The position numbers were made by a program, and so were the translations under genes. From Stegostoma tigrinum (Eukaryota), in NCBI RefSeq assembly GCF_030684315.1, contig NC_081382.1, forward strand, positions 16,846,592-16,910,591: a stretch of DNA of 64,000 bases. Reading direction: 5' to 3'. Under the pieces are notes generated by a model, which saw only the letters and a list, made by a program, of their open reading frames with translations, did no database searches and was not told the origin of the DNA. Position 1 is the first letter of the stretch. Each line of letters opens with the position of its first letter. Positions 13,601-61,245 of the stretch are shown here, piece after piece.

Positions 13601-13795
13601 AGATAACAAGGGGTAGAGCTGATGAACACAGCAGGCCAAGCAGCATCAGAGGAGCAGGAAAGCTTTCTGAAGAAGGGTCTAGGCCCAGAACGTCAGCTTT
13701 CCTGCCCCTCTGATGCTGCTTGGCCTGCTGTGTTCATCCAACTCTACACCTGGTTATCTCAGATTCTCCAGCATCTGCAGTTCCTACTATCTCTG
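13601..13795 (+). repeat. Palindromic Penelope-terminus-derived element (family 1)
   Basis: Inverted arms GATGAACACAGCAGGCCAAGCAGCATC / GATGCTGCTTGGCCTGCTGTGTTCATC around CTGAAGAAGGGTCTAGGCCCAGAACGTC. TSD AAGTGTGTT(A/G)TAT. Confidence 0.85.
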
Positions 13796-14323
13796 AAGTG
13801 TGTTGTATTATGTGATAGGGCCTTTTAATTCCTCTTGTACATCCACTTAGGATAATCGATTATCCTGGATCTCAGGAGCTGCTCAGGAGTGTCTCAGGCA
13901 GCAAATGTATATAAATCCCTGATTCATGCTGCACCCCAAGAAAGAACCTGCTCAAGCTTCTTTCCACTTAAATTAATGAAAAAATAATTGGCAGTTTATA
14001 TTCCAAATATGTGCTTCAACCTGCCTGAATCCCAATACTGAGCCAGCGTGATCAAGCAGACATCCAGACATTCCTTCTTAATTATTTCAGAAGTATTACA
14101 AACTTATTGTGGATATTTTGCATTATAAACAGCTTACGACCATAAATATTTAAGTAAACGTCTCTTGAATGTGATGTATCTGTAAATCTCAGGATGTGTT
14201 CTTAAGGCATAGATTATGTTTAGTGTTCCATAAAAAGAATAGTATCTTAAAGAGCAATATTTGGCTACTTTGTTGTTAAAATAAATACCTTGAATTAAAT
14301 ATGAACTGTTTTGCATTATTCAG

Positions 14324-14413
14324 ATCTGCAGCCAGGTACTGAATATGGTTTTGGAGTTAGTGCCATTAAAGACCACCAGGAGAGTGCCCCTGCTACCATT
14401 AATGTAGCCACAG
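14324..14413 (+). CDS. TNC: TNC exon, FNIII-4 C-half (90 nt)
   Basis: ttcag|ATCTG...ACAG|gtaaga. Encodes [30 protein letters not shown]. Confidence 0.95.
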
Positions 14414-15059
14414 GTAAGAATAAGGTGTCTGATAAGAGGCTGAATTCATTGAATTCTGCAAAAACAAAACAGAACTTAAAGGCACAGCAATGATTCTGTC
14501 TCTGCTTCTAAAGTACCAACATTTACTTTAATCACTCGCTTCCTTTTATGTATTTGTAAGTACTCTTACAATCTGTTTTTATATTGCTGGCTAAGAATAC
14601 TCTAATTTTATTTCCCCTTTTTTTAAATCAAGTTAAACAACTCTTTGCTGTTTTCTAAGACACTTCCAATCTTCAGATTTGCTACTATTCTTTGCAAAAT
14701 ATTAAACTTCTTCTTTTTAACATAAGCCATCCTTATATTGTTGAGTAAGCTATAGATGGATCATGCTTGCTTGTTTTCAATTTGTAAATCATTTTGAATC
14801 ATCTCTTTAAATGTTTTGTGCTATTGTATGTTGTCAAGCTTAACGTGGAATTCAATCTATTTTGAACAACTGATTTCACAGCAGATATTTTGTTATAATA
14901 GTATCAATTAGCTCTGTTTCAGTACACAATATTGGGTGTAAAGTATCTTCATCATTGGTTGGTTCCACATTTGTTGCTCCAGGAAATTGCTACAAAAACA
15001 TCATCAGACTCATTCTCTAAGCCATCCTTGATAATTTGATTGGCTCAGTTTCATGTTAA

Positions 15060-15470
15060 AGGAAAATAAAGGGAGGTAGGAGATCAGCGAGCTTGAGGCC
15101 TCTGCAATTGAAGGCAAGGCCACCAGTGGTATAGGGATTAAACTTGCAATGCAGAACAGGCCAAAACTGGAAGAGAGCTGATATCTTGGAGTATTGTAGA
15201 GCTAGAGGAGATTGTAAATACAGAATGAGGCAGGGCCTTGTAGAGAACTGGAAACAAGGATGAGAACTTTAAAAGCATGCCTTTGCATGATGAAGAGCCA
15301 ACGTAGGCCATTGAGCACAGAGACGAGAGGAGAATGGTAGCAGAGTTTTGGATGATTTCAAGTTTACAGAGAGTCGAGTGTGGAACAGCAATCAACCATG
15401 TATTGACGTAATTGAAGGCATGAGTGAAGATTTCAGCATCAGATGAACTGAGACCAGAGCAGTAGTAAGT
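15060..15470 (-). mobile_element. L2-type LINE 3' fragment
   Basis: Minus-strand ORF TLCKLEIIQNSATIL resembles the L2 C-terminal KLQLIQNSAARIL. Confidence 0.6.
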
Positions 15471-15711
15471 GAGACCAGGCTAGTAAGTGAGACAAAGACC
15501 TTGACTGATTTGTTTCCCCTTATACTACTCAGAGGTGCAGTAGCCAGTTGCTACCATCATGCCAAAGTGAGATCAGCAAACTCAATACAGACACTGGGCT
15601 AAACTTGAAGAGTGTCTGGCATGGTGAAGTTCCATATTGAGTCATATACTCCCAAGCCCAGGAATCAAAAACAATGCAATCACTTATACATTTTAATCAT
15701 TGTTTCTGCAG

Positions 15712-15975
15712 ACTTGGACAGTCCAAAAGACTTGAAAGTGATTGAGACAACAGAGAACTCAATTACTCTGACGTGGAAACGACCACTAGCAACAGTAGAC
15801 CGTTACTACATCATCTATATCTCATCCACCGAAGAGAAGAATGAGGACATTGTGGCAGCTGATGCAGTCTCCTACATCCTGACTGGGCTTGCCCCTGCAG
15901 CTGAGTACAACATTATCCTTATAGCACAGCGAGGTAAACAGAAGAGCAGGGCTTCCACCATCACTGCTTCTACAG
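15712..15975 (+). CDS. TNC: TNC exon, FNIII-5 (264 nt)
   Basis: tgcag|ACTTG...ACAG|gtaagg. Encodes DLDSPKDLKVIETTENSITLTWKRPLATVDRY...EYNIILIAQRGKQKSRASTITAST. Confidence 0.95.
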
Positions 15976-18462: not shown

Positions 18463-21400
18463 TTAGAACACGGAACTGTACAGGACAGGAACGGGCCTTT
18501 CAACCCAAATTGTTGTGCCAAACATGGTGCCAAATGCAACTAACCCCATCTGTCTGCCATTGGCCCATATCCTTCCACTCCATGCATATTGATATGCTTA
18601 TCCAAAAGTCCCTTAAATGCACCTATTTTGTCTACCTTCATCTCCACCTTTGGCAGTTCCAGACTCCTACCATGCTCTGTGTAAAAAATGTGGTCCTCAC
18701 TTCTTCTTTGAACTTTCCCCTCTAACCTTAAATGCATACCCCCGAGTACGAGACCCTTGAACTTTCAGAAAATGATTCAGACCTTCAACCCTGTCTATGC
18801 ATCTCATAAATTTCCAGACTTCTATCAAGCCTCCTCTCAGCTTGCGCCACTCGAGAGAAAACAACCCGAGATTTTAGAACATAGAACATAGAACAGTACA
18901 GCACAGAACAGGCCCTTCAGCCCACAATGTTGTGCCGACCATTGATCCTCATGTATGCACCCTCAAATTTCTGTGACCATATACATGTCCAGCAGTCTCT
19001 TAAATGACCCCAATGACCTTGCTTCCACAACTGCTGCTGGCAACGCATTCCATGCTCTCACAACTCTCTGCGTAAAGAACCTGCCTCTGACATCCCCTCT
19101 ATACTTTCCACCAACCAGCTTAAAACTATGACCCCTCGTGCTAGCCATTTCTGCCCTGGGAAATAGTCTCTGGCTATCAACTCTATCTATGCCTCTCATT
19201 ATCTTGTATACCTCAATTAGGTCCCCTCTCCTCCTCCTCTTCTCCAATGAAAAGAGACCGAGCTCAGTCAACCTCTCTTCATAAGATAAGCCCTCCAGTC
19301 CAGGCAGCATCCTGGTAAACCTCCTCTGAACCCTCTCCAAAGCATCCACATCTTTCCTATAATAGGGCGCCCAGAACTGGACACAGTATTCCAAGTGCGG
19401 TCTAACCAAAGTTTTATAGAGCTGCAACAAGATCTCACGACTCTTAAACTCAATCCCCCTGTTAATGAAAGCCAAAACACCATATGCTTTCTTAACAACC
19501 CTGTCCACTTGGGTGGCCATTTTAAGGGATCTATGTATCAGCACACCAAGATCCCTCTGTTCCTCCACGCTGCCAAGAATCCTATCCTTAATCCTGTACT
19601 CAGCTTTCAAATTCGACCTTCCAAAATGCATCACCTCGCATTTATCCAGGTTGAACTCCATCTGCCACCTCTCAGCCCATCTCTGCATCCTGTCAATGTC
19701 CCGCTGCAGCCTACAACAGCCCTCTACACTGTCAACGACACCTCCAACCTTTGTGTCGTCTGCAAACTTGCTGACCCATCCTTCAATCCCCTCATCCAAG
19801 TCATTAATAAAAATTACAAACAGTAGAGGCCCAAGGACAGAGCCCTGTGGAACCCCACTCACCACTGACTTCCAGGCAGAATATTTTCCTTCTACTACCA
19901 CTCGCTGTCTTCTGTTGGCCAGCCAATTCTGTATCCAAGCAGCTAAGTTCCCCTGTATCCCATTCCTCCTGACCTTCTGAATGAGCCTACCATGGGGAAC
20001 CTTATCAAATGCCTTACTGAAGTCCATATACACCACATCCACAGCTCGACCCTCATCAACTTTTCTAGTCACATCCTCAAAAAACTCAATAAGGTTTGTA
20101 AGGCATGACCTACCCCTCACAAAGCCGTGTTGACTGTATTTGATCAAGCCATGCTCTTCCAGATGGTCATAAATCTTATCCCTCAGAATCCTTTCTAACA
20201 CCTTGCAGACGACAGACGTGAGACTTACTGGTCTATAATTGCCGGGGATTTCCCTATTTCCTTTCTTGAAGAGAGGAATTACATTTGCCTCTCTCCAGTC
20301 CTCAGGTATGACTCCAGTGGAGAGCGAGGATGCAAAGATCTTCGCAAGTGGCGAAGCAATTGCATTTCTCGCTTCCCAAAGCAGCCGAGGACAAATCTGT
20401 CGGGCCTGGCGACTTGTCAATCTTAATGTTTGACAAAATTTTCAGCACATCAGCTTCCTCTATCTCTATCCATTCCAGCATGCACACCTGCTCTTCAAAG
20501 TTTTCATTCACTAAGGTTTCATTTTCTAGCCTTCCTTCTTAGCTCATGACCTCTAATCCAAGCAGTGGCTTGGTAAACCTCTTCTGCACCCTCTCCAAAC
20601 CTCCAAATCTTTCCTGTAATGTGGCAACCAGGATTGAACCCAAAACTTTAAATATGGTCTAACAAAAGTCTTATAAATGCTGCAACATGACATCCTGACT
20701 CTTGAAATCCATTCCCCAACCCAAGCATGTTTATATGCCTTCTTTACCACCGTATCTCCTTGCGTGATTACTTTCAGGGAGCTATGGACTTGAACCCCAA
20801 GATCCTTCTGTACACCAGTACTGTTCAGGGTCCTGCCATTAACCACACACTTTTTCCGAACATTTGATCTCCCAAAGTGCAACATACCTCACATCTGGAT
20901 TAAACTCCTTCTGTCATTTCTCTGCCCATATCTGCAACTGATCTATATCCTGCAATCTCCTTCAACAACTTTCTACACTATCCAAGACACCAGCGATCTT
21001 CATTTCATCCACAAACTTACTAACCAACCAACTACATTTTACATATACTCCGAACAGCAGAGGTCCCAGTATGGATGTCTGCGGGACACCACTAGACACA
21101 AAAAGTGTCAGCCTGAAAAACACCCTTCTATCACAACCCTGCATCTTCTATGTGTAAGTTAATTCTGAATCCAGGCAGCCAAGTCACTGTGGATCCCATG
21201 CATCTTAATCTTCTGGATGAGTCTACCATGATGGGCTTTGTTGAAATCCATACTAAACTCTATGTAAATAACATCCGCTTCTCTACCCCCATTGATAATC
21301 TTCATCACCTCCTCGAAAAATTCAATCAAGTTGTTAAGAGATGACCTGCCCTGCACAACGCTACGTTGGCTATCCCCAATTAGGCCATGCTTTTCTAAAT

Positions 21401-21537
21401 GTACATAAGTTCTACCCTTAAGAATTCTCTCCAATAGCTTCCCAACCACCAATGTGAGACTCGCGGTCTGTGGTTTCCTGGATTCTACCTATTTCCCTTC
21501 TTGAACAGAGGAACAACATTAGTTGCACGCCAGTTTT
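18463..21537 (-). mobile_element. Older degenerate CR1 LINE split by a nested young CR1 (parts 20526-21537 and 18463-18870)
   Basis: Fragmented RT ORFs (VVGKLLERIL, SGVPQTSILGPLLF, KDLGVQVHSS). The sequence reads continuously across the inner insertion. Confidence 0.88.
18876..20520 (-). mobile_element. Young 5'-truncated CR1 LINE with open RT ORF (18963-~20400)
   Basis: About 480 aa without stops, including NYRPVSLTS, DFSKAFDKV, GVPQGSVLGPLLF and KFADD. Has a (TTCTATG)n tail and TSD ATTTT (18871-18875, 20521-20525). Confidence 0.95.
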
Positions 21538-22009
21538 GAGCCTGTTTTTAAGTTCCTTAGAAAGCAAATATGAGAAACAATCTAACGGGCTAAACGGTGA
21601 GACATCTCATTACTTAAATTATTTTGATAAAGTTTAAGGGGTTGATTTGGATTTGTGAGGCTTGGCTATCGACCCTCTCCAACTGTCTCCAACATTACCA
21701 TGCAGACAAGGCACTCAACTAAACCAGACAGGAAGCTGCTGATTTTATGTCCTACATCAGTTATAGAACTCCCAAATAACAGCAGGAATGGGGAAGGAAG
21801 TATATTGCTCTGAGATTGATGTTTGCTGACAGATGGTGGGAAAGTTAAGAGGGCTGCTGGGGTGTTAACTTAATCACTTTATCAGTTTATGAAGAATAAA
21901 ACAAGACACCAATGCTTTTCAAAATATGGTATTAGATATGCCCACCTCCTGCTCACTACCTGAATCCCAGCCTTCTATCTTAGTAAGTGCACTAGGAACT
22001 CTTACTTTG

Positions 22010-28006: not shown

Positions 28007-29605
28007 GTATTTTCTTTTATTCACAACCTTTCCCTATATACCTCTCTTTCTATCCTCAGTTTGCAAATGTACAGAATCTTCCCCCTTTCACAATAATGTT
28101 GATCACAACATGCCTTCACATAGTTCTAAGTACAAAAGCAGTAATTACTGAGTGAAGATGGCAAATACAAACACAGCAGTGTCATAAAATATAATCATTG
28201 ACACTTTGTTCCATAAAATACTTATAATGGACTGATGTGTGAAATTCACAGGAATTATGGCTTGATAGGGATCCAGTGTTTGCAAAGTTTAGGATTCGAG
28301 ATATTCCAAAACTGCACATTTGGATTTGGATACCCCTGACTATTAAACCAGTTTGTTAAAAGTCTGTTGGTAAGACAGCTTTAAATATTGCTGGAAAGAA
28401 AAAGACATGTTGCTCTAGCTTTTTGTATTTGTACTCGTCAGGACAGAGGCCAGAATGCAAAATTTCAAATGATCACAATAATTTTTACTACAGCAAGACA
28501 AGGAGTTCCTTGATTAGCAACTCAACTCTGATTAAGCATTGTTTTGCCATGTAGAAAGCAAAAGATGTCTGTAGGGTCCCCATTCCTCCTGGGTACTTGA
28601 AAACAAAACCGAGGGTTAATCATATTCATTTGTTTGCAGCAAATAGGCCCGGTGTGTGTTTGTATAGGTCTTCTAGTAAGCAAATTAATTGCATTACCTT
28701 ATCTTAAATTGGTTACTAATGTAACTATAAGCATACTCGGATTATTCATGACAGCCTAATCGCAGAATCACATTTGAAAACAGACATTATATTTTGGGCT
28801 TTGTAAGCACAGACTCATTGAGTACAGTCTGCATTCTGTTTATAACTAACAACCAGTATCATGTCGCTCGATTTGACCAGTCAATCACTAGTATGTATGC
28901 CCTATACATGCTGGCCTCATACCAGCACAGAAATTCGCACATGATACTGCTCAATTGGTAGGCAGAATGTCTTTTCGGACTGATATTCCAGTGATAGATT
29001 GATGGAATGCACAGCATGGTATCATGTAAAACCAACAGAATATAATTAGAACAACTGAAACATGATGTTAGTGAAGACTAGCTGACGGACTTCTTCGTCA
29101 ATAGTGGAAGTGAAATGGCGAAGGGTTTTGCGCTGTCATAAAATATTGTACGAAACATATTAGGATTCTTACTGAAAACAACAAAAACTAGAAATCTCAG
29201 TGGGTCAAACAGCTTTCATGGAGAGAGAGCAAGGTTAACATTTTGAGTCTAGATAACTCTCATCAGAGCTGAAGAGAAGTGTGGAGGGGACAGCATTTCA
29301 TTACATGAAGGTGAATATGTACTGATACATTTGCAATAATGGCTAGAAATGACATTGCTCATTTACCTTTGGCCAAACTGTAGTGGTTTGAATTTGATAA
29401 TTAGGGACTGTAAAGGTATAGATTTAATTCACCTTTTATGCTGGCTGGTCAGATTTGTTAAGCCTCAGACATTCACTCCTAATGTTATTAATCCTATTAA
29501 TTCCTATTAATCTTCCTTCATGAGTTCAGATATAAAGTGGATTTTTAATATATTTCAATCACCAATGGAAAGTCAAGTAAAGAATAAATTTTGATTTCCT
29601 TGCTT

Positions 29606-29796
29606 CAGAGATAATGGGAACTGCAGATGCTGGAAAATCTGAGATAACAAGGTGTGGAGCTGAATGAACACAGCAGGCCAAGAAGAGTAGGAAGGCTGAT
29701 GTTTCGGGTCTAGACCCTTGCCCGAAATGTCAGCCTTCCTGCTCCTCTGATGCTGCTTGGCCTGCTGTGTTCATCCAGCTCTACACCTTGTTATCC
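29606..29796 (-). repeat. Palindromic Penelope-terminus-derived element (family 1)
   Basis: Same arms; 15-bp TSD TTGATTTC(C/A)TTGCTT (29591-29605, 29797-29811). Confidence 0.85.
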
Positions 29797-31013
29797 TTGA
29801 TTTCATTGCTTTCCATTTTACTGCTGCCTCTCCAGTACTGAAGAGTCGTGGCCTTGATTCTCCAGGCACTAGCCCCAGGGTGATCGTATGAATTCTGTTC
29901 TGTGAATTATTCTCTTACTGCTTGATGAAAAAGGTTTGACTTCTTTTGAACATCTCCCAAGCATGAGATTAAAGCTGGCTTAGAGAATCACAAGTCAAAC
30001 CTATACCTGTACCACACTATGTACAATCCATTCAAATTTCTGCAAACCACAATGCAACCATATGACCGCGATCCTTTTGTAAATCAAATTCTGTTCCAAA
30101 ATGCTTCTGTATAGATGCTAGAGGCATGTCATTTGCAGTCATCTCTTTTTAGCAAGACAGCAAGTGTAGAATATTTTACCATTGTCAGGATCTGATAAAT
30201 GGTATGGGGCCCAAGGCAATTGGAAGTTAACATGAAAATGGTATTGCTTCTCATTGCTAATATAAAAACATTTTATGCAGAATATGTGGATATCTTTCAT
30301 ACCAGCCTGGACCTTCACGGGTTGCTAAACAATTTTCAAATTGTTCGACTTCTGTAATTTAAAATATCAACAAACAAATCACTACAGTTGTGGAGAGCTA
30401 GCATTAACCTTAGAAAATCGGCACTTTCATAAAGAAATTGTGGGATTTATCAGGGTGAGTTAAAGTGTAAGAGTTTTGTCATGTATCTATGATTAGAGAA
30501 ACAGTCATACCATTAATATTATTGAACTGTTGCAAAGTCATAAAGATGAAAAGAAAACACACACAGGGAACCAAATTTTATTAAATACTTTTCTTCTCCC
30601 CTACTTGATTTTTTTTGGCCATTTTGGCCAGACACATTAAAGCAATTTATTTTAGTTTCTTTGAAATTAATGTATAAATGTTTAAACCAACATTCCTTTA
30701 GATCAATGGCAAACTTGTACGCCCAGTCATTCCTTCTGGTGCTGCAGAGGGCATGATTTATATTGTATACATCATAGAATTGTAGACCGGTGGCAGTGGA
30801 ACATTAGGCTATTTGACCCATTGGTTTTCTGCTGTCTCTCTGTATGAACGGTTCAGCTAGTGGCACTCCACACCTTTTCCCCGCACTAATACAAACATTT
30901 TCTTTTTGGTTTATGACTGAATTCCCTGTTGAATACTTTAGATGAAGCTGCCTTGACCAGACGTTCAGACATTGCATTCAATGTACTGCAGTCACCCCAG
31001 TGCCCAGTTGAAA

Positions 31014-31147
31014 GTTCAGTTCTAAGGAAGGGTCACCGGACCCGAAACATTTTCTCCTCCACAGATGCTGCCAGACCAGCTGTGCTTTTCCAGCAACTTT
31101 GTTTTTGTTTCTGATTTACAGCATCCGCAGTTCTTTTGGTTTTTATT
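31014..31147 (+). repeat. Short Penelope-terminus-derived element, family 2 (other copies ~5080-5275, ~29170-29300, ~35715-35850, ~50341-50490, ~60955-61037)
   Basis: CTAAGGAAGGGTCACCGGACCCGAAACATT...TCCACAGATGCTGCCAGACC...CAGCATCCGCAGTTCTTT; perfect 13-bp TSD TGCCCAGTTGAAA (31001-31013, 31148-31160). Confidence 0.8.
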
Positions 31148-35640: not shown

Positions 35641-36279
35641 AGAAAAGGTGAGTGTCACTGGTTAGGCCAGTGTTTATTACTTTTGAGAAATGACTGAACA
35701 AATCAAAACCAAAATATATAAAGAACTGCACATGCTGGAGGACTAAAACAAAGAGAAACAGAAATTGCTAGAGAAACTTAGCAAATCTGGCTGCATCTGT
35801 GGAGAAAAAACTGCTAACATTTGGGGTCCAAAGACCCTTTTCGGAACAAGATAAAATTCAATTGCAGATACAAAGAAGCAAATAGTAGAAACAGACTTCT
35901 TGATGAAAGGAATGCCTCTAAAATTGATTGCTCCAAAAATGTGGATTAGATTAGTATTTTAAGTTTTAATTTGACTATTGTAAAATGTCAACATTAAGCT
36001 GGCATACGGCAAAAATATAAACTTCAGGGGAACACTTTTTTCCTGAAACAACTACAATGCATTTTTATTTTATTTTTCACAGCTCACTAAGGGATCACAT
36101 AATATAACAAAGCTTTCTGTTGTGGGAATGGGGAAGTGAATGTGACTTCTGATGTATCATTTCACACTTGTGGTAACCTCAGGTGGAGACAGTCATTGAG
36201 CAAGGGTCTCTCCCAATCAGCCAGTTTGTAAGCAAAAAAGATGAGCCATCTAATTCTAATCCACGAACATCTATTACAG

Positions 36280-43415: not shown

Positions 43416-43849
43416 GTACTTGTTATTTTTATAAAATCCTTTCTGCTCTCAAATTTCATATAACAATGCCATACAAAGGCTTGGCAAAATTAGGCACTTT
43501 TTTTGACTTGTTTTGATTTTGGCATTTATTTTCCATTTGCTAACAGGTTCTTTCAATGATATTTTTCATTGTAATAACAAAAGGAAAACTCTCTGATTGC
43601 TCTAATCTTAACAAAGTCCTCACATCGTTTATAGTTTGCCAGTTGGGACTTTTGCAATGATTTGTGGCTTGCTATAAAACGCTATAATTTGCTGGACCAT
43701 GGCTTTTCACAGCATGCCCCATTAGCTAGGACTTTTCCCTCCCTCTTCAGCACAAATAAATAGTTTTTATTCACTTGTAGGATGTCGACTTGCTGGCTAG
43801 CAGAAGGTGGTGGTGAGCTGCCCTTTTAAACTATGCACCATATAATATT

Positions 43850-44040
43850 AGTGATAACACAGTGAGGAGCTGAAGGAACACAGCCGGCCAGGCAGCGTCA
43901 GAGGAGCAGGAAAGCGGACGTTTCAGGTCGGGACCCTTCTTCAGAAATCTCTGAAAATTTCTGAAGAGGGGTCCTGACCCAAATTGTCAGCTTTCCTGCT
44001 CATCACTGTTATCACTGAGTCCAGCATTGGCAGTTCTTAC
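43850..44040 (+). repeat. Palindromic Penelope-terminus-derived element with two head-to-head hammerhead-like motifs
   Basis: 14-bp TSD CACCATATA(A/T)TATT (43836-43849, 44041-44054). The minus strand reads CTGAAGA-A-GGGTC-CC-GACCT-GAAA-CG-TC. Confidence 0.8.
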
Positions 44041-44769
44041 CACCATATATTATTACCAGCTTATACTGTCAGTATAGTATTAAGGTCACTGGAGCATCTA
44101 TGAATATCAGAACTGACCATCTACATCATGAAGCAAGAAGACTGAGAAGGGAATGGCAGAGAAGAAATTGGGTGAATTTGACTAAAAGTTGGCACAGGAA
44201 GAGAAATGAAGACAGGGATTGGGTTAAAAGAGGACTGAAAGGAAAAGTAAAAATAAATGAAACAGCACAGATTCATTACACTTTCTGGGCTAGATACTTG
44301 GACTTAAGAGTTACAAGAAGAAGCAGAACAATGAGATTGAGAAACCTATCAACCATGATCAAATGGCAGAGCAGATCAGATGGGCAGCATGGCCTAATTC
44401 TGCTCTTGCACATTATGGCCTTATAGACTGGTTTTACAGGAACATAAGTCTGGTCCAAATATTCTGATATTCACTGGCACCCTATCCACCTGTCACCTTG
44501 GCCCCCACCCCACAACAGAGAGCCTAACCCCTTAATTTTCAGCTGGTGACGTGGAGCTCAGTTCTAATGTCACACAGTATGAACATAGTGGCAATTCCGT
44601 GGAATATCATGACCATTAGTAACAGGATCCTTGCATAGTTACGTAACAGAACTGACATCCAGAAGTAAGCTTATTTCACCACAATGCACAAATAAATACA
44701 TTTCTAAAATTTTTAATGGAAATTTTCAGCATAAGGTGCCATTTTCACAGAGGAAATGGCAGACCACTC

Positions 44770-45030
44770 AAGTCATAAAGTCCCTACAGAGTGGAAGCAG
44801 GTCATTCAGCCCATACCAACCCTCTGAATTGCGTCCCACCCAGATTAACCCTGGTAACGCTGCATTTTCCAACAGCTAATCCACCTACATTGCACATCTT
44901 TGGACTGTGGGAGAAAACCTGTATAGACACAAGGAGAATGTGCAAATTCCACACAGACAGTGGCCCAAGGGTAAAATTGAACCTGGGTTCCTGCTGCTGT
45001 GAGGCAGCAGTGCTCGCCCCTGTGCCACCC
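44770..45030 (-). mobile_element. tRNA-derived SINE (HE1/V-SINE-like)
   Basis: Same head and core as 6720-7013 on the reverse strand. Confidence 0.75.
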
Positions 45031-45307
45031 TAAGTTGTAAATCAATTTGTGTGATTCACAACTTAAGGTAGTGCTTCCTCACCACAAACTGATCAACAAC
45101 TTCCACATGAATAACAACAGCACATTAACTTATCATTTTCCCAGCAAATTCTGGCACATAATCTTCAGCTTTGAATAAAATTTCCAAAATGCTTTTATAT
45201 CTGAAGATTTCTTACGATAAGCATGCAGTAGCATGTTCTGCATATTGGGCTGAATTAGCACCAGAGGTTGTAGCTCCTTTGTGTGGGGCACTCATCAATA
45301 ATACTGT

Positions 45308-45506
45308 CAATACAGTGTGGAGCTGGGGGAATGCAGCAGGTCAGGCAGTATCACAAGATCAGGAAAGTTAATGCTTCTATTCAGGGCTCTTCATCAGGAT
45401 CCCAATCCGAAATGTCAACTTTCCTGTTCCTCTGACCTGCTGTGTTCCTCCAGCTCCACACTCTACTGATTCTGACTTTCAGCATCTGCAGTTCATGCTG
45501 TCTCCT
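45308..45506 (+). repeat. Palindromic Penelope-terminus-derived element (older copy)
   Basis: AGTGTGGAGCTGG...CCAGCTCCACACT arms and tail CAGCATCTGCAGTT; AATACTGT direct repeat on both sides. Confidence 0.7.
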
Positions 45507-45576
45507 ATCAATACTGTGTCTGTGTAATTGTTTCAAGGCATGCTTTATCTAAATAAAAACATGATTGCATGTATAG

Positions 45577-47258
45577 GCCCTCCGCTTCTTCCCGCACCGC
45601 AGACCCGACCAGATCCCCTTCACCGACACCCTCATCTGCCTAGCCGAACTTGTCCTCACCCTCAACAACTTCTCTTTTGATTCCTCCCACTTCCTACAGA
45701 CAAAGCGGGTGGCCATGGGTACCCGCATGGGCCCAAGCTATGCCTGCCTCTTTGTAGGTTATGCGCTAACAGTCCCTCTTTCGCACCTACACCGGCACTA
45801 AACCCCACCTCTTCCTCCACTACATTGATGACTGTATCGGCACCGCCTCTTGCTCCCCAGAGGAGCTCGAACAGTTCATCCACTTCACCAACATCTTCCA
45901 CCCCAACCTTAAGTTCACCTGGGCCATCTCCAACACATCCCTCACCTTCTTGAACCCTTCTGTCTCCATCTCAGGCTACCACCTATAAACCGATATCCAT
46001 TTCAAGCCCACCAACTCCAACAGCTACCTAGAATACACCTCCTCCCACCCACCTTCCTGCAAAAATTCCATCCCCTATTCCCAATTCCTTCACCTCCACC
46101 GCATCTGCTCCCAGGATAAGGCATTCCACTCCCATACATCCCAGATGTCCTCGTTCTTCAAGGACCGCAACTTGCCCCCGCAGTGGTCGAGAATGCCCTT
46201 GACCATGTCTCCAGCATTTCCCACACCTCATCCCTCACACCCTGCCCCCGCAATAACCGCCAAAAGAGAATCCCCCGAGTCCTCACATACCACCCTACCA
46301 ACCTCCAGATACAACGCATCATCCTCCGACACTTCCGCCATCTACAATCTGACCCCACCACTAAAGACATTTTTCCAACCCCAGCCTTGTCTGCCTTCCA
46401 GAAAGACCACTCTCTCCGCAACTCCCTTGTCTGCTCCACACTCCCCTCCAACCCCACCACACCCAGCTCTTTCCCCTGCAACTGCAGGAAGTTCTACACT
46501 TACCCCCGCACCACCTCCCTCACCCCCATCCCAAGCCCCAAGATGACTTTCCACATCAAGCAGATGTTCACCTGCACACCTTCCAATGTGGAATACTGTA
46601 TCCACTGTACCCATTATGGCTTCCTCTACATTGGGGAAACAAAGCGGAAGCTTTGGGACCTCTTTGCAGAAGACCTCCGCTCGGTTCGCAATAAACAACT
46701 GCACCTCCCAGTCGCAAACCATTTCAACTACCCCTCCCATTCCTCTGACAACATGTCCATCCTGGGCCTCCTGCAGTGCCATAATGATGTCACCCGTAGG
46801 TTGCAGGAACAGCAACTCATATTCCGCTTGGGAATCCTGCAGCCCAATGATATCAATGTGGACTTCACAAGCTTCAAAATCTCCCCTCCCCTCACTGCAT
46901 TCTAAAACCAGACCAGCTCGACCTCACCTCCCTAACCTGTTTTTCGTCTCACCTATCCCCTCCTTCCACCTCAAGCCGCACCTCCATTTCCTACCTACTA
47001 ACCTCATCCTACTTCCTTGACCTGTCCGTCCTCCCCGGACTGACCTATCCCCGCCCTGCCTCCCCACCCATACTCTCCTCTCCATCTGTCTTCTCCTCTA
47101 TCCATCTTTGGTCTGCCTCCTCCTCTGTCCCTATTTATTTCAGAATCCTCTCCCCTTCCCCATTTTCTAATGAAGGGTCTAGGCCCAAAATGTCAGCTTT
47201 TGAGCTCCTAAGTTGCTGCTTGGCCTGCTGTGTTCATCCAGCTCCACCCTTTGTTGTC
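45577..47258 (+). mobile_element. 5'-truncated Penelope-like element (RT + GIY-YIG endonuclease + terminal repeat)
   Basis: FLQTKRVAMGTRMGPSYACLF, YIDD (45821-45832), FTCTPSNVEYCIHC...LYIGET and LIFRLGILQP. Pyrimidine-rich 3' UTR, a few frameshifts, and TSD TTGCATGTA(T/C)AG (45565-45576, 47259-47270). Confidence 0.9.
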
Positions 47259-48149
47259 TTGCATGTACAGTATTGTAGCATTCATATTTACTAAGGACTA
47301 ATTCTAAATACCCTTTCATATTACTTTGCTGATGGAAGCTATTACATGTCTGTCTCATGTGAAATGGCTACTGTACTTAACATGGAAACCATTTTTGCTT
47401 CAATTCTACACTTGTCTTCCGAAAGGTCCGTATGAAACTGTAGGCTATCGCTGTGTTTTGGTAGCTGCTGACTTAAGTTCTGCTGAGCAAAGGATTTTTT
47501 TTTAATGTTGGTTTTCATTTCCAGCTTGGATTAATAACTGTGAGCAGATAACATGCCAGGGTATTTCACATATATGATGAACTCTGCTCAGCTGTTCTGA
47601 TGTGTGCCAAGGTTATGAGTATGAGTCTCACAAAATGGTAACACAAGTGTGGAAATAAGTTATTACAGACAAGGGCTAAAAGTAACAGTATTTGGCCTTT
47701 TTTGAGGAAAATCTAGAATGCATTCCTTGGACTTATTAAGAATTTCAATAGTGATTACGGGCTACTTATTATCTGGCATTAGAAATAGTTACAGTTGAAC
47801 ATTTACCATTGTAAATATATTTTATCCAAAAATATTTACATAGAATTAGCAGCATCAGTAGGCCAATCAGCTCCTCAAGCTTTCTCCGTCATCTTTCAGG
47901 ATCACTACTGGTATGATTCTGACCTCAACTTTCCTCGTTATCCCTTTCAACTCCCTTGTCAATCAAGGATCTACTTAACTCTGTCTTTAAAAATATTTAA
48001 TGACGCTGCCTCCAATGCTCTCTGGTGAAGAGAATTCTACAAAGCCACAACCTTCTGAGAAGAAAACAATGATCTCAACTCGGTTTTAGTCGGAAAAGCC
48101 TTCTTTTTAAATTGTGTCACCTAGTTCCAGTTTCTCAGTCAAGGATAAA

Positions 48150-48680
48150 GGTGTGTGGGCCCCAAAGTTATTGAACCGAATATGCATCCTGAAGGCTGCA
48201 GAGTTCCCAAGTTCAGTGCAAGCATCTCATTTTCAACTTGGAGAGTCTACAGCCTTCAGGAGCCAAGATTGAGTTCAATAATTTTAGTGTCTGAGCACCT
48301 TCTCCCACATCCTTTCTCCATCCCCCATTAACCAGGCCTTGCTATCAACATGAGTTGCTGCGACAACGATCCCATGATCAACTACTAGCAGTCCCCATGA
48401 GCAGTTATTCATTCTCCCAGGCTGACTTTTACCTATCCCTTTGTCTGTTTGTTTCTCTCTCTGGGCCCTATCTCCACCTATTGTTTTCTCCTCCCACTTC
48501 CCCTCACTCCATCTTCTGCATAAATACCAACCTTCTTATAGCTACAATCAGTTCTGGGGTTACTGGACCCAAAACATTAACTCTGCTTTCTCTCCATAGA
48601 TGCTGCAAGATCTGCTGAGTTTTCCCAGCAATTTTTGTTTTTGTTTCTGATTTCTCGCATCTGTAGTTTTTAGGTTTTTC
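48150..48680 (+). mobile_element. 3' fragment of a second Penelope-like family, nested within minus-strand CR1 remnants (~47820-49260)
   Basis: HLIFNLESLQPSGAKIEFNNF resembles the GIY-YIG C-terminus. It is preceded by a short inverted piece (CCTGAAGGCTGCAGAGTTCCCAAG versus CTTGGAGAGTCTACAGCCTTCAGG) and ends in the family-2 terminal repeat. Confidence 0.65.
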
Positions 48681-48937
48681 TGCACTCACAGGTATTACTT
48701 TGAGGAGCTGCAACAATGTCAAGCCTGGAAATGGGGTTACGGTGAGAAATTTGCCTTGTGTCTTCTCCATAATTTGTCAGACCTACCTTTTGTATCATCG
48801 GCAAAATTTAGCATCTCTGGTTCCTTCATTCAAGTCATTGAAATGGATTTTAAATTGTTAAGACCCTAGACTTGGCTCCCAGGGGACTCCACTAATTTCA
48901 TACTGCTAAATCAACAATGGACCCTTTATAATGACTC

Positions 48938-49094
48938 AGAGATAGTAAGAACTGCCGATGCTGGAGTCAGAGAAAACAGTTGTGGAGCTGGAAGAGTACA
49001 GCAGGCCAGGCAGAATCAGAGGAGCAGGAAAGTTGACATCTCAGGTCTGACGCAAAACGTCAACTTTCCTGCTCCTTTGACACTGCCTGGCCTA
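48938..49094 (-). repeat. Palindromic Penelope-terminus-derived element
   Basis: GGAGCAGGAAAGTTGAC...GTCAACTTTCCTGCTCC arms; 13-bp TSD TTTATAA(T/C)GACTC. Confidence 0.75.
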
Positions 49095-51234
49095 TTTATA
49101 ACGACTCCCTGCTCCTTGCTAGCCTTCCAACCCTCTATCACATACTAATACATTACCCTCTATTCCACAAGAATAGTCCACAGCACATAGTCAAATATCT
49201 TCTGGAAATTCAAGTATAGCACACCTAAAGATTTCCTTCCTTGAACTTGTTTGGTAATTTTCTCAAAAGAACCTGATTTCAAAGCATGATTGTTCAGTAG
49301 AATTGACTAATTAAATGACAGTTGGAAAATCAGAACTCCAGATTTGTTCAACAGATGCACTAATTTGCTAGCTATCTAGAAAATAGTGATGATCACAAAT
49401 TTGTGAAGTGATAAGGCCAGTACAATGCATGAATGATGTCTTCTCACAGTTATTTGCATTATTAATAATCTTGTTTCATCGATTTTGAGCTTTGCCTGTA
49501 GAAATGCAGCTTTATTTTGCTTTAATTGCATCCCAGTTTATAGCTGCAGAAACATGTTTCTCTTTGTTTCGTGTAGCGGTAGTGATTTGTAGCGTGCTGA
49601 AGTCTTTTTAGTGTGTTGCAGATTGCTGAGGGCAATAAAAGATAATTAGCTTAACATGAATTTCTGTCTTGGAAAATGCTGAGAGAGGTCTCTGCATTTT
49701 TTTACTTACATATTTTTGAGGTGAGTTTTACGATCCTTTCTTGATGCAGCAAATCCGAATCTACTGTGTGCATAACGGGGAAGGAGAAAACTGTAAAGGC
49801 TGGAAATCAGAAAAGTGTAGACAAATGGGTCAGCATCTGAAAATGAAAGATGGTTTAACATTCTGAAAGTAATTCCTTGTCAGAATGTGCTACTGCCTCT
49901 GACATTAAGGTCAAGCAGCATGTTAAAAACGGAAAACATTGCTTTGTTTGCAGAGATAGCAATAGATTCTAGCTCAGATTGTGACATTTATTCAACCCAG
50001 TTACTGGTAAAGCTAAGTAGAGTAAGTCTGGTGCTTAGTGAACTCCACATGTTGTCAAATCCCACGTCATAACAAATGTCCATTCTTTTGCTTTGAAATA
50101 TTTATTCTGTAATGGTAAGGTTAATGCAAAGATAATTCACAATTCCTTTTAGGAGTGGATTCAAATTCTGAATGATGGGGATATTTGTCTATACGGTTTG
50201 AATAATGGTGAGTTTGTAGTTTATGTTTATATATTATAAAGCATCAAACAAGATACCCCCCAAAAAAATTAAAACATTTTAAAAATCAGTTGCTAAACAT
50301 TTAATAAAGATTTTGAGCTCTGGAAATTATGAATTAGTATAAAATAAAGAACTGCAGATGCTGGAAATCTGAAACAAAAGCAGAAATTGCTGGAGAAATG
50401 CAACAGGTCTGGTAGCACCTGTGGAGAGAAAGCAGAGTTAACATTTCAAGTCCAGTTCTGTAGAAGGGTCACTGGCCTCAAAACATTAATTTTGAATTAA
50501 TATTTCACCCCAAGATTTCAAAGTGGATTTGGGAATCTCACAAAAACTGTGAAAACCTGCTGAAACAAAAAGAAAGCCCAGGGCAAATGAGTTCTAGAGT
50601 CAGAACCTTCTGGCCTGTTATACTCACTGAATAGTATTTTGTGGTTGCTTAGCTACTAAACCCATGTTAATTAGAAACACAGAATACCCTTCACCAAAAA
50701 TAACTGAGGAATCGTTTTTAAACAGGTTTTGAGCTTTTGTAAAGCAGCTAATTCAGTTTTATTGCCTTAGCAATCCAGGCAGCTTTCATTTTACTACATT
50801 GCTCAGGAAACTGGCAAATAAATGAACAATTCCATTCACCAGCACATACTTTATAGTTTTCTTTCCAGTTTAATCATTTCCTTCTGTTTATTGCAGAAGA
50901 GATGATATGTATTGCCTTTCTGACAAACATTCTGTTGCGTATCTATTAAGATTAGAACTTGTCTCCATGACTGGTTATCAAATACCATAACAAAGTGATT
51001 TATTTTGTACACTTGCTCAGCGAATGGCAATTTTCCAACAGGGGATAATATCTTCACTAAGGTGCATTGCTGTTACTGAATGGTTTGGCTGCCTGTATTT
51101 GTGTAAAATATAATAAGCACCACCTTGAAGCTATAATTCTGAATTTACCAAGCAATCATATTTGCTCTGAAGTGAGCTTTTGACCCAATAAGTATGACTG
51201 AAATAAATATTTCCATGAATCTTCCTTCCTTTAG

Positions 51235-54500: not shown

Positions 54501-55305
54501 ATCATGTTGACGGAATTATCCTGACACAAAGCTCAAATTTCCTCTGTTAACCCGAGGTTGAGCACCTTTCTTTATCACTGCAATATTTTTATATTTGCAT
54601 ATATAGGTCTAGTGCAATCATGAACCATTTGAGTTATTTTTGTTTCTCCACCTGATTTCCTAAATAAGGTGACCCATATTGATGCACAATTCCCTGAATC
54701 CTTGCAGTGCCTTACCATGGCCATTTGTCATGTGTACACTGAAGTATTGTTAGCTGGCTGACTTTGGGAGATACTGAATACAAGTCCAATCACTATGTTC
54801 ACACAAGTCCACTTCCACCAGAGGGAAATACAGTGGGAGCTCTGGCTGATTATTTTGTTTATCTCTTCCTAGTCTCGGAACACTAAGACCAATTGTACTA
54901 CCCATTTGCGGGCCTGGCTGAAATCAGCTAACTCAGGGCATCAAGGGTATGTATGACACAGCATCCATTCAGAGCCCCGATATCTTACTCAAAATGTTCC
55001 CTTCTCATTGAGCCAAATGAGAGTTGCTTCAGTAATGGTCTCCCTCATATTATGAAACTTATTTTTTTTTTGGAAACCATTGTCCTTACGTCTAATGTTA
55101 ACTTGTTTCTTTGTTTTAGGCACTTAGCACGTGGCCTTGTCTGTGAATCTATAACGTGTGAGTGCTGAATAAGTTCATAAATTTAAGTCAATAGTTGTGC
55201 AATCATGGTTCAATAGTATTTGATAAGATCTGTAGAAAAAGCATGAATGTGAAGGATGTCTTTCATTTATAATGTTCTTCCTAAAATAATTCCCTGTTTC
55301 TCCAG

Positions 55306-55578
55306 AGCAAAAACTCAAAATGGAAAACTTAGTGGTTTCACACATAAACTCTTATGGATTCAAAATCTCTTGGAACGCAACGGATGGGGCCTATGAAAAT
55401 TTTGTTATAGTGGTTAGAGATTCTGGCAGGTTGTTGGAGCCAATGGAGCACAGAGTGCCAGGCGATCATCACTCCATTAACATCACTGGTCTGATCACTG
55501 GGATTGGTTATGATATTAATATCTATGGTGTAACCAATGACCAGCAATCTAAGCCCCTATTTACTAAGACGGCAACAG
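55306..55578 (+). CDS. TNC: Variable-region exon V9: FNIII-C-like (273 nt)
   Basis: tctccag|AGCAA...ACAG|gtattt. Motifs INSYGF, DSGRLLEP and GLITGIGY match human repeat C (INPYGF, DSGKLLDP, GLITGIGY). Confidence 0.93.
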
Positions 55579-57776: not shown

Positions 57777-58049
57777 AAGCTGAACCTGAAGTGGACAACT
57801 TAGCAGTTTCTGATGTTACCTCAAATGGCTTCACACTCTCTTGGACAACAGATGAGAATGTCTTTGATTACTTTAACATTAGAATTAGGGATTCCAGAAA
57901 AGAAACTTCACCGTGGGACTTCACAGTGTCAGGGGAACTCCGAACAACTAACATCACAGACTTACCTGATGGCACTGAGTATGAGATTTCCTTGGTTGGC
58001 ATTTCAGAGGGACGATATTCGCAGCCAGTAAATACCATTGCAACCACAG
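57777..58049 (+). CDS. TNC: Variable-region exon V10: FNIII-D-like (273 nt)
   Basis: ccctcag|AAGCT...ACAG|gtatta. EAEPEVDNLAVSDVTSNGFTLSWTTDENVFDYFNIRIRD...TEYEISLVGISEGRYSQPVNTIATT matches human repeat D. Confidence 0.93.
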
Positions 58050-59986
58050 GTATTATTGTATTTTTTGACAGACTCTGTCTTTATTTCTCTCCCAGATCTA
58101 ATTTACCTTGTTTCCCCAGGTTCAACTCTTTTTTTAGTTTTTGGACTATTGACAAGCAAAGATACTGTCTCTCGCTTTCAATGAATTGTTTACTAAACAT
58201 CATTGATTAATGTTTCTACTTCTACTTTTGTATCTTTTAGAACTTGCTTCTGCCACCTTTCTTCCTTCAAACAATAGACTTCTCTAATGTGCCATTAACC
58301 ATCAGTAGGCAATTTTCTGCAGAGCAGCAGAAGGGTGGGCTGCTTGAGTCAAGCCAAAGAGGCTGAACAGAATGGGGAGCCTTTCTGTTGAGCGTAAAAG
58401 CCCCACTTTCATGTACTGATACTGCAACAAAGTGGATTGAGTTCGGCAGTGTTCGTGATGTAGACTTATCCAAAATGTATAGCTCCACAGTTTAACCACA
58501 ATCTTGGCTTGTGGCCTGCACCAGGATGAATTCTGCCATTGGAAAAGACTTTACCCCAATCAAGAGTTGCTTCAGTTTGAACGGTGACGGTAGAGTTTAG
58601 AAACATTGGTTGCAAATATCCTGCTTTCATATCTAACTCTTTACCGTTAATTAAAGATAGAATTCATAGGGCTGTCTCGAACCTATGCTCTTGTTTGTTG
58701 GGGCATGGAAGACAATTTGTTGTTGGTGGTGGGATGGCAAATTTGGATTGAATAGATATTGAGGACAAACAAACACTCTGGAGTTTCATTCTCTGGCTAG
58801 TTTTAATAATCCCGGGAATTATATCTCAAGAAGTTTCCAACTAATGGATGCATGTGTGAAGTTATACCATTTATGGATTTTAAAGCACACAGCCAGTTTT
58901 TCCATTTAATGTTCTCTGATGCAACATTGATGCTAATCCATTAATTCTTAAATTTTGCAGGATGCTTTGAACAAATTTGATCTATGTTTCAGTTGATTTG
59001 CCATAATTTTGGCCATTCTTTGACTTTGTCACAATGTCTTGTTTTTCAGTGTATGTGCATAGCTGTAAAGGACATATGAGAGAACCACCTCTGCTATGCA
59101 CCTCCAGTCTTCTCCACATAGCCTGAGCAAAACTGTCGCTGCTTTTCTTTCATAATCATAAATACATTTTCCCTCTTGTTTCATTTACAAGAAGTGTTTA
59201 TGCAGTACTGGGAATGCAGCTTTCATTTTGTGTCTACTTACTGTTCTTTGTACTGTAAAACACAGCAAATGAAAATTAGGTAAATGGATGCATTAATTTG
59301 TACTTCATTGTGAAACAAAGGATCCGAAAGCCATAAATGAGCAAAAAAAAGGATAACCAATAATGGGACTTCTACTGTCTTTGTGAAACATGCTCAACAA
59401 GCATATTTACTTGGTGACAGTATCTATAGTTTTCTACAATGTTTTGCCATAGTGTTGATATCATAATTAGAGTAAAATGTTTATGTTTCATCTTTGTAAA
59501 CAATTGGACAAAGATGCCAATCTTATTTCCAATGAGATGATTTGTCTCTTTACGGATTGACAAAATGGCCCACTTGCAAGGCTTTCAGCCTAGGTTATAA
59601 ATGCAAGTTTTATTTGCTATATTTTATGGGCAGCCAGCAATACATTAGTGTGCAGCTTCATTAAAATTGCATCTCCATGCAGGGTATTATTTTCATTCAC
59701 CATTCTAGGATTTGCTTCATTTTATTCTTGTGTTCTATTTTTATGATTGATCTCCTTTATTTCAATTTGTAATCTTAACATAGTGCTATATACACTTTCA
59801 GATCAAATCCAATATTTTTTACAGGTTTTGGAAGACATTAAATGTATAACTTGAGAAATCAGTTCTGCCATTAAACTTTTTGTTCCAACTTGCTCGTGGT
59901 TTTCCACATTGTCTAAATCTGTTGAGATGTCCAGTTTAACTATACATTAAATATGTTTGACTCTTGTTATCAACTCTCTTTGACAG

Positions 59987-60109
59987 CATTAGGAGCTCCT
60001 AGATTTCTGCAGTTCACAGATGTCACCGACACTACAGTGACAGTCTGGTGGGACATTGAGAGTAGCTACATCACCAACTTCAAGATTATTTATGTGCCAA
60101 CTGATGGAG
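59987..60109 (+). CDS. TNC: TNC exon, FNIII-6 N-half (123 nt); missed by the ORF track
   Basis: ctctttgacag|CATTA...GGAG|gtaaga. Encodes ALGAPRFLQFTDVTDTTVTVWWDIESSYITNFKIIYVPTDG. Confidence 0.92.
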
Positions 60110-60587
60110 GTAAGATGCCACATTGATTTATCAGAATGTCTATTTTATCTGGTGTCAAATATAAAGCAAGAAGTCCATATTCAATCATTGACTTTCCAAT
60201 CTAATCTGGAGGACTACTCTATATAGTTTGCTGAAAAGTATCCCAACAGTTTAAAGGGCCCAAATTAGTTGAACTCATTGAAGCATGGCATTTCTACGAG
60301 GTGCTAACTGATTCTGGAATTTCCCATTAACATTACAATAAGTGCAGCATTTACTTATATTTAATACTGCCTGAAATGACGGTAGAAGCACATTCAACAT
60401 TAACAATCATTAGAGAATTGAATGCATTTTTGAAGGTGAGAAAATTGCAGGACTGTGAGGAGAGAGCATGTGGGTTGTGAATTGTGCATGTGGAAGGAGC
60501 TCATTCAAAATGCCAGCACAGGCATGAGTGACTGAATGGCCTGCTTTGGTACAGTAAGGTTCTAAGATTCTATATTAATTTTCTCAG

Positions 60588-60731
60588 GTCCAAGTAACAC
60601 CGTGACAGTCGATGGCAGAAAGACTCAAACTATACTGAGGAGGCTCACCCCAGCTACTGAATACAAAATCAAAGTCATCGCTGTTAGAGGGTTTGAGGAA
60701 AGTGAACCAGTTTCAGGCACAGTGCACACAG
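60588..60731 (+). CDS. TNC: TNC exon, FNIII-6 C-half (144 nt); missed by the ORF track
   Basis: ttttctcag|GTCCA...ACAG|gtaaag. Encodes GPSNTVTVDGRKTQTILRRLTPATEYKIKVIAVRGFEESEPVSGTVHT. Confidence 0.94.
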
Positions 60732-61037
60732 GTAAAGGAAGGAGGAAAAGGCAATAACTGAACGCAAAATCTGCACTGCCAAAGTACCATGCTCGTCATA
60801 GGTTTGTGACAGATCGCTGAAAATTTAAAATGTTTATTGTGCAGAGGAAGCACATTCTATCCACGCTCCCTGTCATTTCTCCTGTCACTGCATACATCTC
60901 TGAGGTCTGTGCACGGCAGTGTGTGGAGAAACCAGAAGGGTATGCATCAGAAAACCAAAAATGCTGGAATTAAGCTAATGTTTTGAGTCTACGCGACACT
61001 CAGTTTTTGTGGAGAGAGAGGAAGCTAATGTTTCGAG

Positions 61038-61245
61038 ATAATAAAGTGTGAAGCTGGATGAACACAGCAGGCCAAGCAGCATAGCAGGAGCACAAAAGCT
61101 GATGTTTGAGGCCTAGACCCTTCATCAGAGCTAGGCCTGAAACGTCAGCTTTTGTGCTCCTGAGATGCTGCTTGGCCTGCTGTGTTCATCCAGCTTCACA
61201 CTTTATTATCTTGGATTCTCCAGCATCTGCAGTTCCCATTATCAC
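61038..61245 (+). repeat. Young palindromic Penelope-terminus-derived element
   Basis: Near-perfect arms of about 75 bp (61038-~61115 versus ~61131-61209) and a perfect 16-bp TSD AAGCTAATGTTTCGAG (61022-61037, 61246-61261). Confidence 0.9.
61097..61132 (-). ncRNA. Minimal type-I hammerhead ribozyme-like motif (degenerate copy)
   Basis: Reverse strand AGCT-CTGATGA-A-GGGTCTAGGCCT-CAAA-CA-TC-AGCT. The opposite arm keeps GAAACGTCAGCT, so the consensus is AGCU CUGAUGA A [stem II] GAAA CG UC AGCU. This copy has GAAA changed to CAAA. Confidence 0.6.

Follow-up and report, generated by a model that had tools for sequence, protein, structure and literature searches.

Head-to-head Penelope terminal repeats in tenascin-like introns of Stegostoma tigrinum, with breakpoints clustered over a predicted minimal hammerhead

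Penelope-like elements that carry an endonuclease (EN+ PLEs) are described, in extracts of two accounts (PMC3846280; PMC8557442), as having a head-to-head inverted copy of the PLE terminal repeat (pLTR) in which the inverted arm is shorter (37 bp in Pen2a_Av), a one-sided tail of 30-40 nt, a target-site duplication (TSD) around the unit and heavy 5' truncation. The same extracts do not map the junctions onto the hammerhead ribozyme, and the origin of the tandem and inverted structures is called undefined in that of Craig 2021 (PMC8557442). Dual minimal hammerhead ribozymes (min-HHRs) on opposite strands, 100-700 bp apart, appear in a portion of Cervera and de la Pena 2014 (PMC4209133), alongside mostly solo motifs from truncated PLEs. 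For the Poseidon_Ac element of Anolis, Frangieh 2024 (PMC11167929) found that the tail corresponds to the interval between two reverse transcriptase (RT) start sites, that cutting and extension take place on both target strands in vitro, and that ribozyme mutants insert normally. Non-LTR retrozymes are reported also in one chondrichthyan, according to an extract of the preprint of Li, Clavereau and Pollet 2026 (bioRxiv 10.64898/2026.07.22.740005). Here we analyse six hairpin-forming inserts, termed A to F, in a 64,000-nt stretch of the Stegostoma tigrinum genome (NC_081382.1, positions 16,846,592 to 16,910,591; the window). Each is a head-to-head pair of PLE terminal repeats, and the breakpoints between the repeats pile up on the hammerhead, but not at its cut bond.

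The six palindromic inserts had been pointed out in a first-pass annotation of the window, and all were recovered at the same places, with lengths of 157-208 nt and hairpin minimum free energies (MFEs) of -76 to -152 kcal/mol. An inverted-repeat scan of the window (arms of at least 30 nt, no more than 500 nt apart) gave 8 hits, 7 of which together cover A-F, B being matched twice. When the long PLE copy at 45577-47258 was used as a BLAST query against the window, it matched the six hairpin loci only, in every case via its last ~95 nt, and a profile search added only weaker extras, consisting of copies of a second family and four marginal fragments. Positions within the repeat are numbered from C3 of the hammerhead as 0 (47167 in the long copy), with the predicted cut after +27; the arm with a tail of about 35 nt is referred to as the tailed arm and the other as the tail-less arm.

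Hairpin A (13600-13795, + strand) joins a tail-less arm at 13600-13664 (-), whose inner end at +28 coincides with the predicted cut, to a tailed arm at 13664-13795 (+) that starts from -3; its TSD (13587-13599 / 13796-13808) is of 13 bp with one mismatch. Hairpin B (29606-29796, -) has a tailed arm at 29719-29606 (-) from +6 and a tail-less arm at 29720-29796 (+) from +16/17, within a TSD of 15 bp with one mismatch (29591-29605 / 29797-29811). Both arms of hairpin C (43851-44040, +) start from about -4, with a spacer of 8 nt between them that seems to repeat the beginning of an arm; there is an internal deletion in the tailed arm, and the TSD (43836-43850 / 44041-44055) is again of 15 bp with one mismatch. 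Hairpin D (45308 to ~45509, +) is decayed, with a tail-less arm from 0, read by eye, and a tailed arm from +7/8; its weak TSD (45300-45307 / 45510-45517) is of 8 bp ungapped, or of ~11-14 bp if a 3-nt indel is allowed. The junction of hairpin E (48938-49094, -) lies at the apex of stem II, both arms starting from about +13 to +15 and the tail-less arm stopping early, at +59; the TSD (48925-48937 / 49095-49107) is of 13 bp with one mismatch. Hairpin F (61038-61245, +), the least diverged copy with arms 97% alike, has a tail-less arm from about -2, read by eye, a tailed arm from +12 and an exact TSD of 16 bp (61022-61037 / 61246-61261).

At most 2 of 3000 random flank pairs score as high as the TSD of A, B, C, E or F, in agreement with the claim that five inserts have their own duplications of 13-16 bp; that of D is weaker, its 8-bp ungapped match being reached by 2.2% of random flank pairs. 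The duplicated targets are mildly AT-rich (28% GC against 39% for the window). Target DNA beside the tail end (at 13795, 29606, 61245 and 48938) starts AAG in A, B and F and GAG in E, which suggests either a putative microhomology of 1-3 nt or a nick preference; the tail end together with these adjoining target bases resembles the start of the hammerhead core. A Penelope origin, a minimal type-I hammerhead and independent, TSD-flanked retro-insertion, all proposed in the first-pass annotation, are supported by these data. The hairpins resemble EN+ PLEs in the inverted pLTR, the one-sided tail, the 5' truncation and the variable TSD, but differ from the units described in the extracts cited above in having no open reading frame (ORF) between the repeats and TSDs of 12-16 rather than 8-10 bp.

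The outer ends of the arms fall into two classes, at about +120 to +128 in the tailed arms and at about +85 to +93 in the tail-less arms, with the exception of E (+59). A TATCTCWG-like motif is found at both classes of end, and a small stem-loop separates the two. Each hairpin contains one tailed and one tail-less arm (6/6, plus 2/2 in the second family), an arrangement with a probability of 0.016 for the six, or 0.004 with the second family included, if the two kinds were chosen independently at 50:50. Expressed as tailed/tail-less pairs, the inner ends are at -3/+28 in A, +6/+16 in B, -4/-4 in C, +8/0 in D, +13..15/+13 in E and +12/-2 in F, those of C, D and F being read partly by eye from printed columns; an automated score placed them at -12/-11 in C (where the reference is circular), +21 for the tail-less arm of D (where stem II is decayed) and -9 in F (where the reference columns are ambiguous). 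All 12 inner ends thus lie within -12..+28, about 40 nt over the hammerhead, and 11 of them are upstream of the cut, in line with the earlier observation that the fold-back point is on or beside the motif. Among the nine insertions bounded by a TSD, counting both families as well as D, eight have the primary 5' end within -8..+15 and only the long element does not; when truncation is modelled as a shifted exponential, in its most favourable form, this has p of about 1e-7, for an interval chosen after seeing the data. The count leaves out five repeats without a clear TSD (5100, 48300, 35690, 29266 and 2107), one of which extends ~250 nt upstream. In another genome, the gene model P0155 appears to cross a head-to-head junction of this kind, its inner ends lying near -6 and +1.

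According to the first-pass annotation, hammerhead cleavage makes the 5' end of the RNA, and the RT runs off this end and folds back. The tail-less arm of A does start exactly at +28, and the short arm of a second-family insert ends at H17 (50487); these two ends may represent a minority of cleaved templates. However, none of the six tailed arms starts at +28, all of them reaching 13-32 nt further 5', and sequence 5' of the predicted scissile bond is kept in 11/12 arms overall; a single inner end out of 12 at the bond is compatible with chance (p=0.26). Mapping the breakpoints against the core, a check put forward in that annotation, gave the clustering over the hammerhead and no excess at the cut bond. 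In addition, contiguous stem I is only 2 bp in the hairpin family, and in the Anolis system cleavage is not needed for insertion and no RNA ends are seen at the cut site (PMC11167929). We consider cleavage very unlikely as the source of the hairpins: because each of the six tailed arms continues 5' beyond the predicted cut, and 1/12 inner ends lies at it, the template was probably uncut RNA.

We favour, with a probability of roughly 0.55, the interpretation that the hairpins are separate, dead-on-arrival insertions of a Neptune/Nematis-type PLE, reduced to the pLTR, in which two target-primed cDNAs on uncut RNA stopped at the hammerhead and were joined head-to-head. The RT/GIY-YIG protein would nick the two target strands ~12-16 bp apart, giving rise to the observed TSDs, by analogy with the Anolis PLE in vitro. 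From each nick a cDNA would then be primed on element RNA that has not been cleaved, the first starting at the tail end (+120 to +128) and the second at an inner start (about +91 to +93), presumably simultaneously; the two end classes are observed, and their role as RT start sites is suggested by Frangieh 2024. Both cDNAs would stop between about -12 and +28, where the ends cluster, perhaps because the hammerhead is folded or bound by protein, or because the RNA has a 5' boundary shortly before it. The two 3' ends would be end-joined with little or no microhomology, sometimes via the palindromic stem II, and the gaps filled. The hammerhead would thus act here as a stop and a joining site, not as scissors. 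The solitary element at 45577, which has a TSD of its own and no inversion, terminates at +91, and because of this +91 is probably a primary start point.

The process recalls twin priming in L1, in which two target nicks prime two cDNAs and produce a 5' inversion within one TSD. The inverted piece of L1 is upstream sequence, whereas in the shark hairpins it is a second copy of the same 3' end. Compared with Poseidon_Ac (PMC11167929), the shark family has a similar hammerhead ~120-130 nt upstream of the outer end, two end classes that bracket a stem-loop tail and mildly AT-rich targets; it differs in belonging to another clade, with a Zn-finger-like linker, and inverted copies are not treated in the main text of that paper.

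A second explanation, modelled on Arkhipova 2013, is self-priming fold-back, whereby a single cDNA or antisense template folds back on a palindrome close to the 5' end of the pLTR (stem II or ACGU) and extends into a hairpin, the endonuclease trims one tail, and apex deletions scatter the junctions. In the extract seen, fold-back was proposed from palindromic junctions in rotifer PLEs, with endonuclease resolution for the tail. It accords with E, which is joined at the stem II apex, with the symmetric C and with A and B, in which one arm is nested within the other. Variants common to both arms of a copy count in favour of this explanation and of the two-cDNA interpretation alike: arm-arm identity averages 90% in the 5 pairs from the same copy and 79% in the 61 pairs from different copies, and the two arms of F share private changes. 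On the other hand D, F and the second-family hairpins 5100 and 50341 are non-nested, each arm having sequence that is missing from the other, and F is young, to judge from its 97% arm identity and exact TSD. The tail-less arm of D and of F extends 5' beyond the end of its tailed partner and could not have been copied from that partner, short of a later deletion of the apex; fold-back of a single cDNA, as in the original proposal, is not supported as a general route. The use of +91 as an end without any inversion, and the explanation of the tail by two RT start sites in Frangieh 2024, also argue against self-priming, which we regard as possible but rather unlikely.

Several points weigh against the two-cDNA interpretation. 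The sample is of 6-8 hairpins from one window, several of them decayed, and for C, D and F the eye readings of the inner ends and the automated score differed. Palindrome apices can be deleted after insertion, and such deletions could mimic non-nested arms. Self-priming accounts just as well for the two symmetric hairpins, E (at stem II) and C (at -4), and two ends do coincide with the cut site, namely the inner end in A and the outer end of the short arm of the 50341 insert. The support comes from sequence, and the in vitro work concerns a Poseidon element of a different clade.

Alternatively, the ends may mark a transcript boundary and not a fold, with short pLTR RNAs that start or are spliced just upstream of the core and an RT that runs off near that end. 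Several primary ends at -3, -4 and -8 would be explained in this way. The 267-nt 3' region of the long element is 77% pyrimidine, and its tract at 46900-47166 has a single AG (47142-47143) in the last 190 nt, located 24 nt before the core, so that it resembles the 3' end of an intron; in D. virilis an intron ends at hammerhead helix I, according to a partial source. Most ends, however, fall within the core itself (+6 to +17), the inserts show nothing exon-like upstream, and no match to the donor-like GTAAG, GTGAG or GTAA is present in 46850-47166. It is therefore improbable that such a boundary accounts for the clustering.

The similar sizes, the inverted-repeat look and the presence of six copies in 64 kb could also indicate a non-autonomous hairpin master element, either a retroelement resembling miniature inverted-repeat transposable elements (MITEs) or a DNA transposon, multiplying as a unit. 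No two of the six junctions are alike, and because of this the hairpins are unlikely to replicate as units; they do not appear to be copied onward. Shared variants define about three subfamilies (A/B; F and the long element; C/D/E, with C loosely placed), the TSDs vary in length and sequence, the ends are asymmetric by ~35 nt, and the arms are the termini of a retroelement. Transcribed as a unit, a copy would form a long hairpin, and in the predicted RNA fold of the hairpins the core is buried in a long duplex. For the same reasons the family of mini-elements envisaged earlier is not supported, and a master element is extremely improbable. MITEs and DNA transposons have symmetric, conserved terminal inverted repeats, a fixed TSD length and uniform copies. 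We rejected such an origin, which had been named as a possible refutation, on account of the asymmetric ends, the variable TSDs of 13-16 bp and the non-uniform copies with junctions that all differ. A self-propagating hairpin family was rejected on the differing junctions and the three or so subfamilies. The inserts share with non-LTR retrozymes, as presented in the preprint extract, a short, non-coding, hammerhead-bearing sequence derived from a PLE pLTR. Retrozymes form head-to-tail tandems with a whole ribozyme per unit, whereas the shark hairpins are head-to-head (six out of six) with mostly partial cores, and a tandem retrozyme was rejected as well.

The motif consists of CUGANGA (0-6), an extra A, a 5-bp stem II (8-19), GAAA, CG and UC, followed by the predicted cut after +27. 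This part of the consensus in the first-pass annotation was found, but the self-complementary stem I formed by AGCU was not confirmed. Its 5' strand stands directly before the core in F only, where it spans the junction; the long element has CAUUUU at this place and both C arms AUUU. Public gene models (P0002 and P0153-P0157) read through the pLTR and hammerhead as spurious coding sequence. Protein searches with the frame that crosses hairpin A, standing in for other shark DNA, returned only 5 gene models, too few for statistics. The Ala codon required by AGCU occurs in 0/5 read-through proteins from other genomes, two of which (P0154 and P0157) may be spliced or junctional there; P0155 was left out of this comparison, its match spanning the junction. 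The self-complementary AGCU stem I is, on this evidence, not ancestral. The inserts had also been described as centred on the hammerhead, but the whole core is present in only 1/12 arms and the CUGANGA box in 5/12, B and E having it in neither arm.

The extra nucleotide, G10.1-C11.1 and the palindromic 15.2-16.2 all agree with the published minimal hammerhead, and we predict from sequence that the hairpins carry this PLE motif. Compared with the min-HHR in the portion of PMC4209133 consulted, helix II is of 5 rather than 7-8 bp, and contiguous helix I is of 2 rather than 4-5 bp, as in the D. virilis variant; the published length is not reached in the hairpin family, and the best copies of other families have 4 bp. 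Helix II is 91% paired, with a non-significant covariation score that is reached by 202/500 shuffles of an alignment of 11 decayed cores from three families, one of them misaligned. The only exact match to a minimal-hammerhead descriptor in the window is at 43944 (-), in the minus arm of hairpin C; 7 hits are obtained with at most one mismatch, of which 4 are PLE repeats. The Rfam hammerhead covariance models, which had been suggested as a check, gave no hit at gathering level on the whole window, nor at E<=10 on 43700-49300. Neither an active monomer nor an active dimer fold was obtained among the MFE folds of the six cores. Sub-threshold Rfam matches in the window were to microRNA (miRNA) hairpin and small nucleolar RNA models only, the hairpins scoring weakly as miRNA.

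The RT/GIY-YIG element at 45577-47258 (+), also noted previously, is a 5'-truncated, broken PLE with its own TSD of 12 bp (45565-45576 / 47259-47270, 11/12 matching). It encodes the C-terminal part of the RT, the thumb, a decayed CX4CxxC linker and GIY-YIG, followed by the 3' region and a tail-less pLTR without an inverted arm. Its hammerhead motif (47167-47198, +) has 2 core mismatches and a predicted cut after 47194. The reading frame contains stops and frameshifts, RT motifs and YIGET are found in the translations, and Pfam gave no hit on the two decayed ORFs that the element has in the window; domain assignment relied on close relatives. The protein is 81% identical to P0001 (Rhincodon) and 78% to P0002 (Stegostoma), and a profile-free library search returned 3183 relatives at E<=0.001. 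P0001 has GIY-YIG above the Pfam cutoff, RVT_1 below it and CX4CxxC, which in the window copy is decayed at two cysteines. A CX2-5CxxC linker before GIY-YIG is, in a partially consulted source, the mark of the Neptune and Nematis clades. By sequence criteria the copy is classed as an EN+ PLE of Neptune/Nematis type, Neptune being the likelier label from its vertebrate distribution.

The hairpin arms were said to equal the 3' terminus of this element. Their identity to it over +28..+92 is in fact 66-89% (11 arms, the deleted tailed arm of C being left out), and the ~35-nt tail of one arm is absent from the element. From this identity and the subfamily grouping it follows that the long copy is probably a relative and not the donor of the hairpins, closest only to F (86-89%); for this broken, 5'-truncated copy the proposed role of coding partner is not supported. 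There is no tandem pLTR-ORF-pLTR unit in the window.

As objects, the hairpins are PLE by-products of an already known kind; the unusual point is the geometry of the breakpoints over the hammerhead. A literature search, mostly at the level of titles and abstract openings, found no mapping of PLE inversion breakpoints onto the hammerhead and no account of the shark family, although shark examples may appear in supplements; two supplements of PMC4209133 gave no shark names, the figure supplement lying outside the search. A non-catalytic job for the PLE hammerhead is a tentative extension of the two-cDNA interpretation. A dimeric RT/endonuclease would prime two cDNAs from start sites bracketing the tail, and the folded, perhaps RNA-dimerised, hammerhead would arrest both, with its palindromic stems joining them. 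If true, this would explain the origin of inverted pLTRs and one-sided tails and the conservation of nearly inactive hammerheads. Extrapolation from 8 hairpins in 64 kb suggests that shark genomes may hold on the order of 10^5 such natural products. In these short, TSD-bounded copies the two ends of each cDNA are preserved, so that mapping breakpoints across a whole genome could tell twin priming, self-priming and ribozyme cutting apart without experiments at the bench. For annotation, the resemblance of the hairpins to MITEs should be borne in mind.

Representatives of other PLE families are found in the same window. The second-family insert at 50341-50487 (-) has a tailed arm that starts from the stem II loop and a short inverted arm (about -5 to H17), within a TSD of 16 bp with 2 mismatches; the outer end of the short arm (50451-50487) lies within 2 nt of the predicted scissile bond, as if, in this single case, the RT had begun on the 3' end of a cleaved RNA. 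A solo tailed pLTR of this family at 31014-31147 (+) starts 8 nt before the core and has an exact TSD of 13 bp and no inverted arm. The older hairpin referred to as 5100 (5075-5272, +) has a tail-less arm with the whole core on the minus strand and a tailed arm from the GAAA box on the plus strand. Terminal repeats of two other families, with decayed minimal hammerheads, are present at 48300-48690, 35690-35850 and 29175-29295, the first of which keeps ~250 nt of pyrimidine-rich upstream sequence, and 2105-2160 is a ~55-nt fragment of the hairpin family, essentially the tail alone. No convincing TSD was found at 5100, 48300, 35690, 29266 or the 2107 fragment. Hairpin F sits inside the hammerhead remnant of another PLE family (60940-61290). 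The 16 bp duplicated around F take in the last part of stem II, GAAA, the cleavage triplet and stem I of this older element, a second decayed arm of which lies at 60972-60995. Directly upstream of the 48300 remnant there is an unrelated inverted repeat (48148-48301), imperfect and with 34-nt arms (71%).

The exons of the window encode FN3 repeats, for which the best solved relative is tenascin (one exon ORF tested against the PDB). At least 8 tenascin-like, FN3-type exon-like ORFs lie on the plus strand at 15609-58210, and the repetition of similar exons suggests an expanded FN3 array. All the hairpins and other PLE features discussed here are located between FN3 exons, i.e. in tenascin-like introns. 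Any copy transcribed as part of the host intron would form a near-perfect duplex of 35-90 bp, an effect of which on the host (editing, small RNAs) is only a possibility. RT copies of long interspersed nuclear elements are found at 18963-21520 and 9943-10847, which from their motifs we take to be CR1/L2-like; the copy at 18963-20441 (-) keeps an open frame of 492 aa with an RVT_1 match at E 6e-35.

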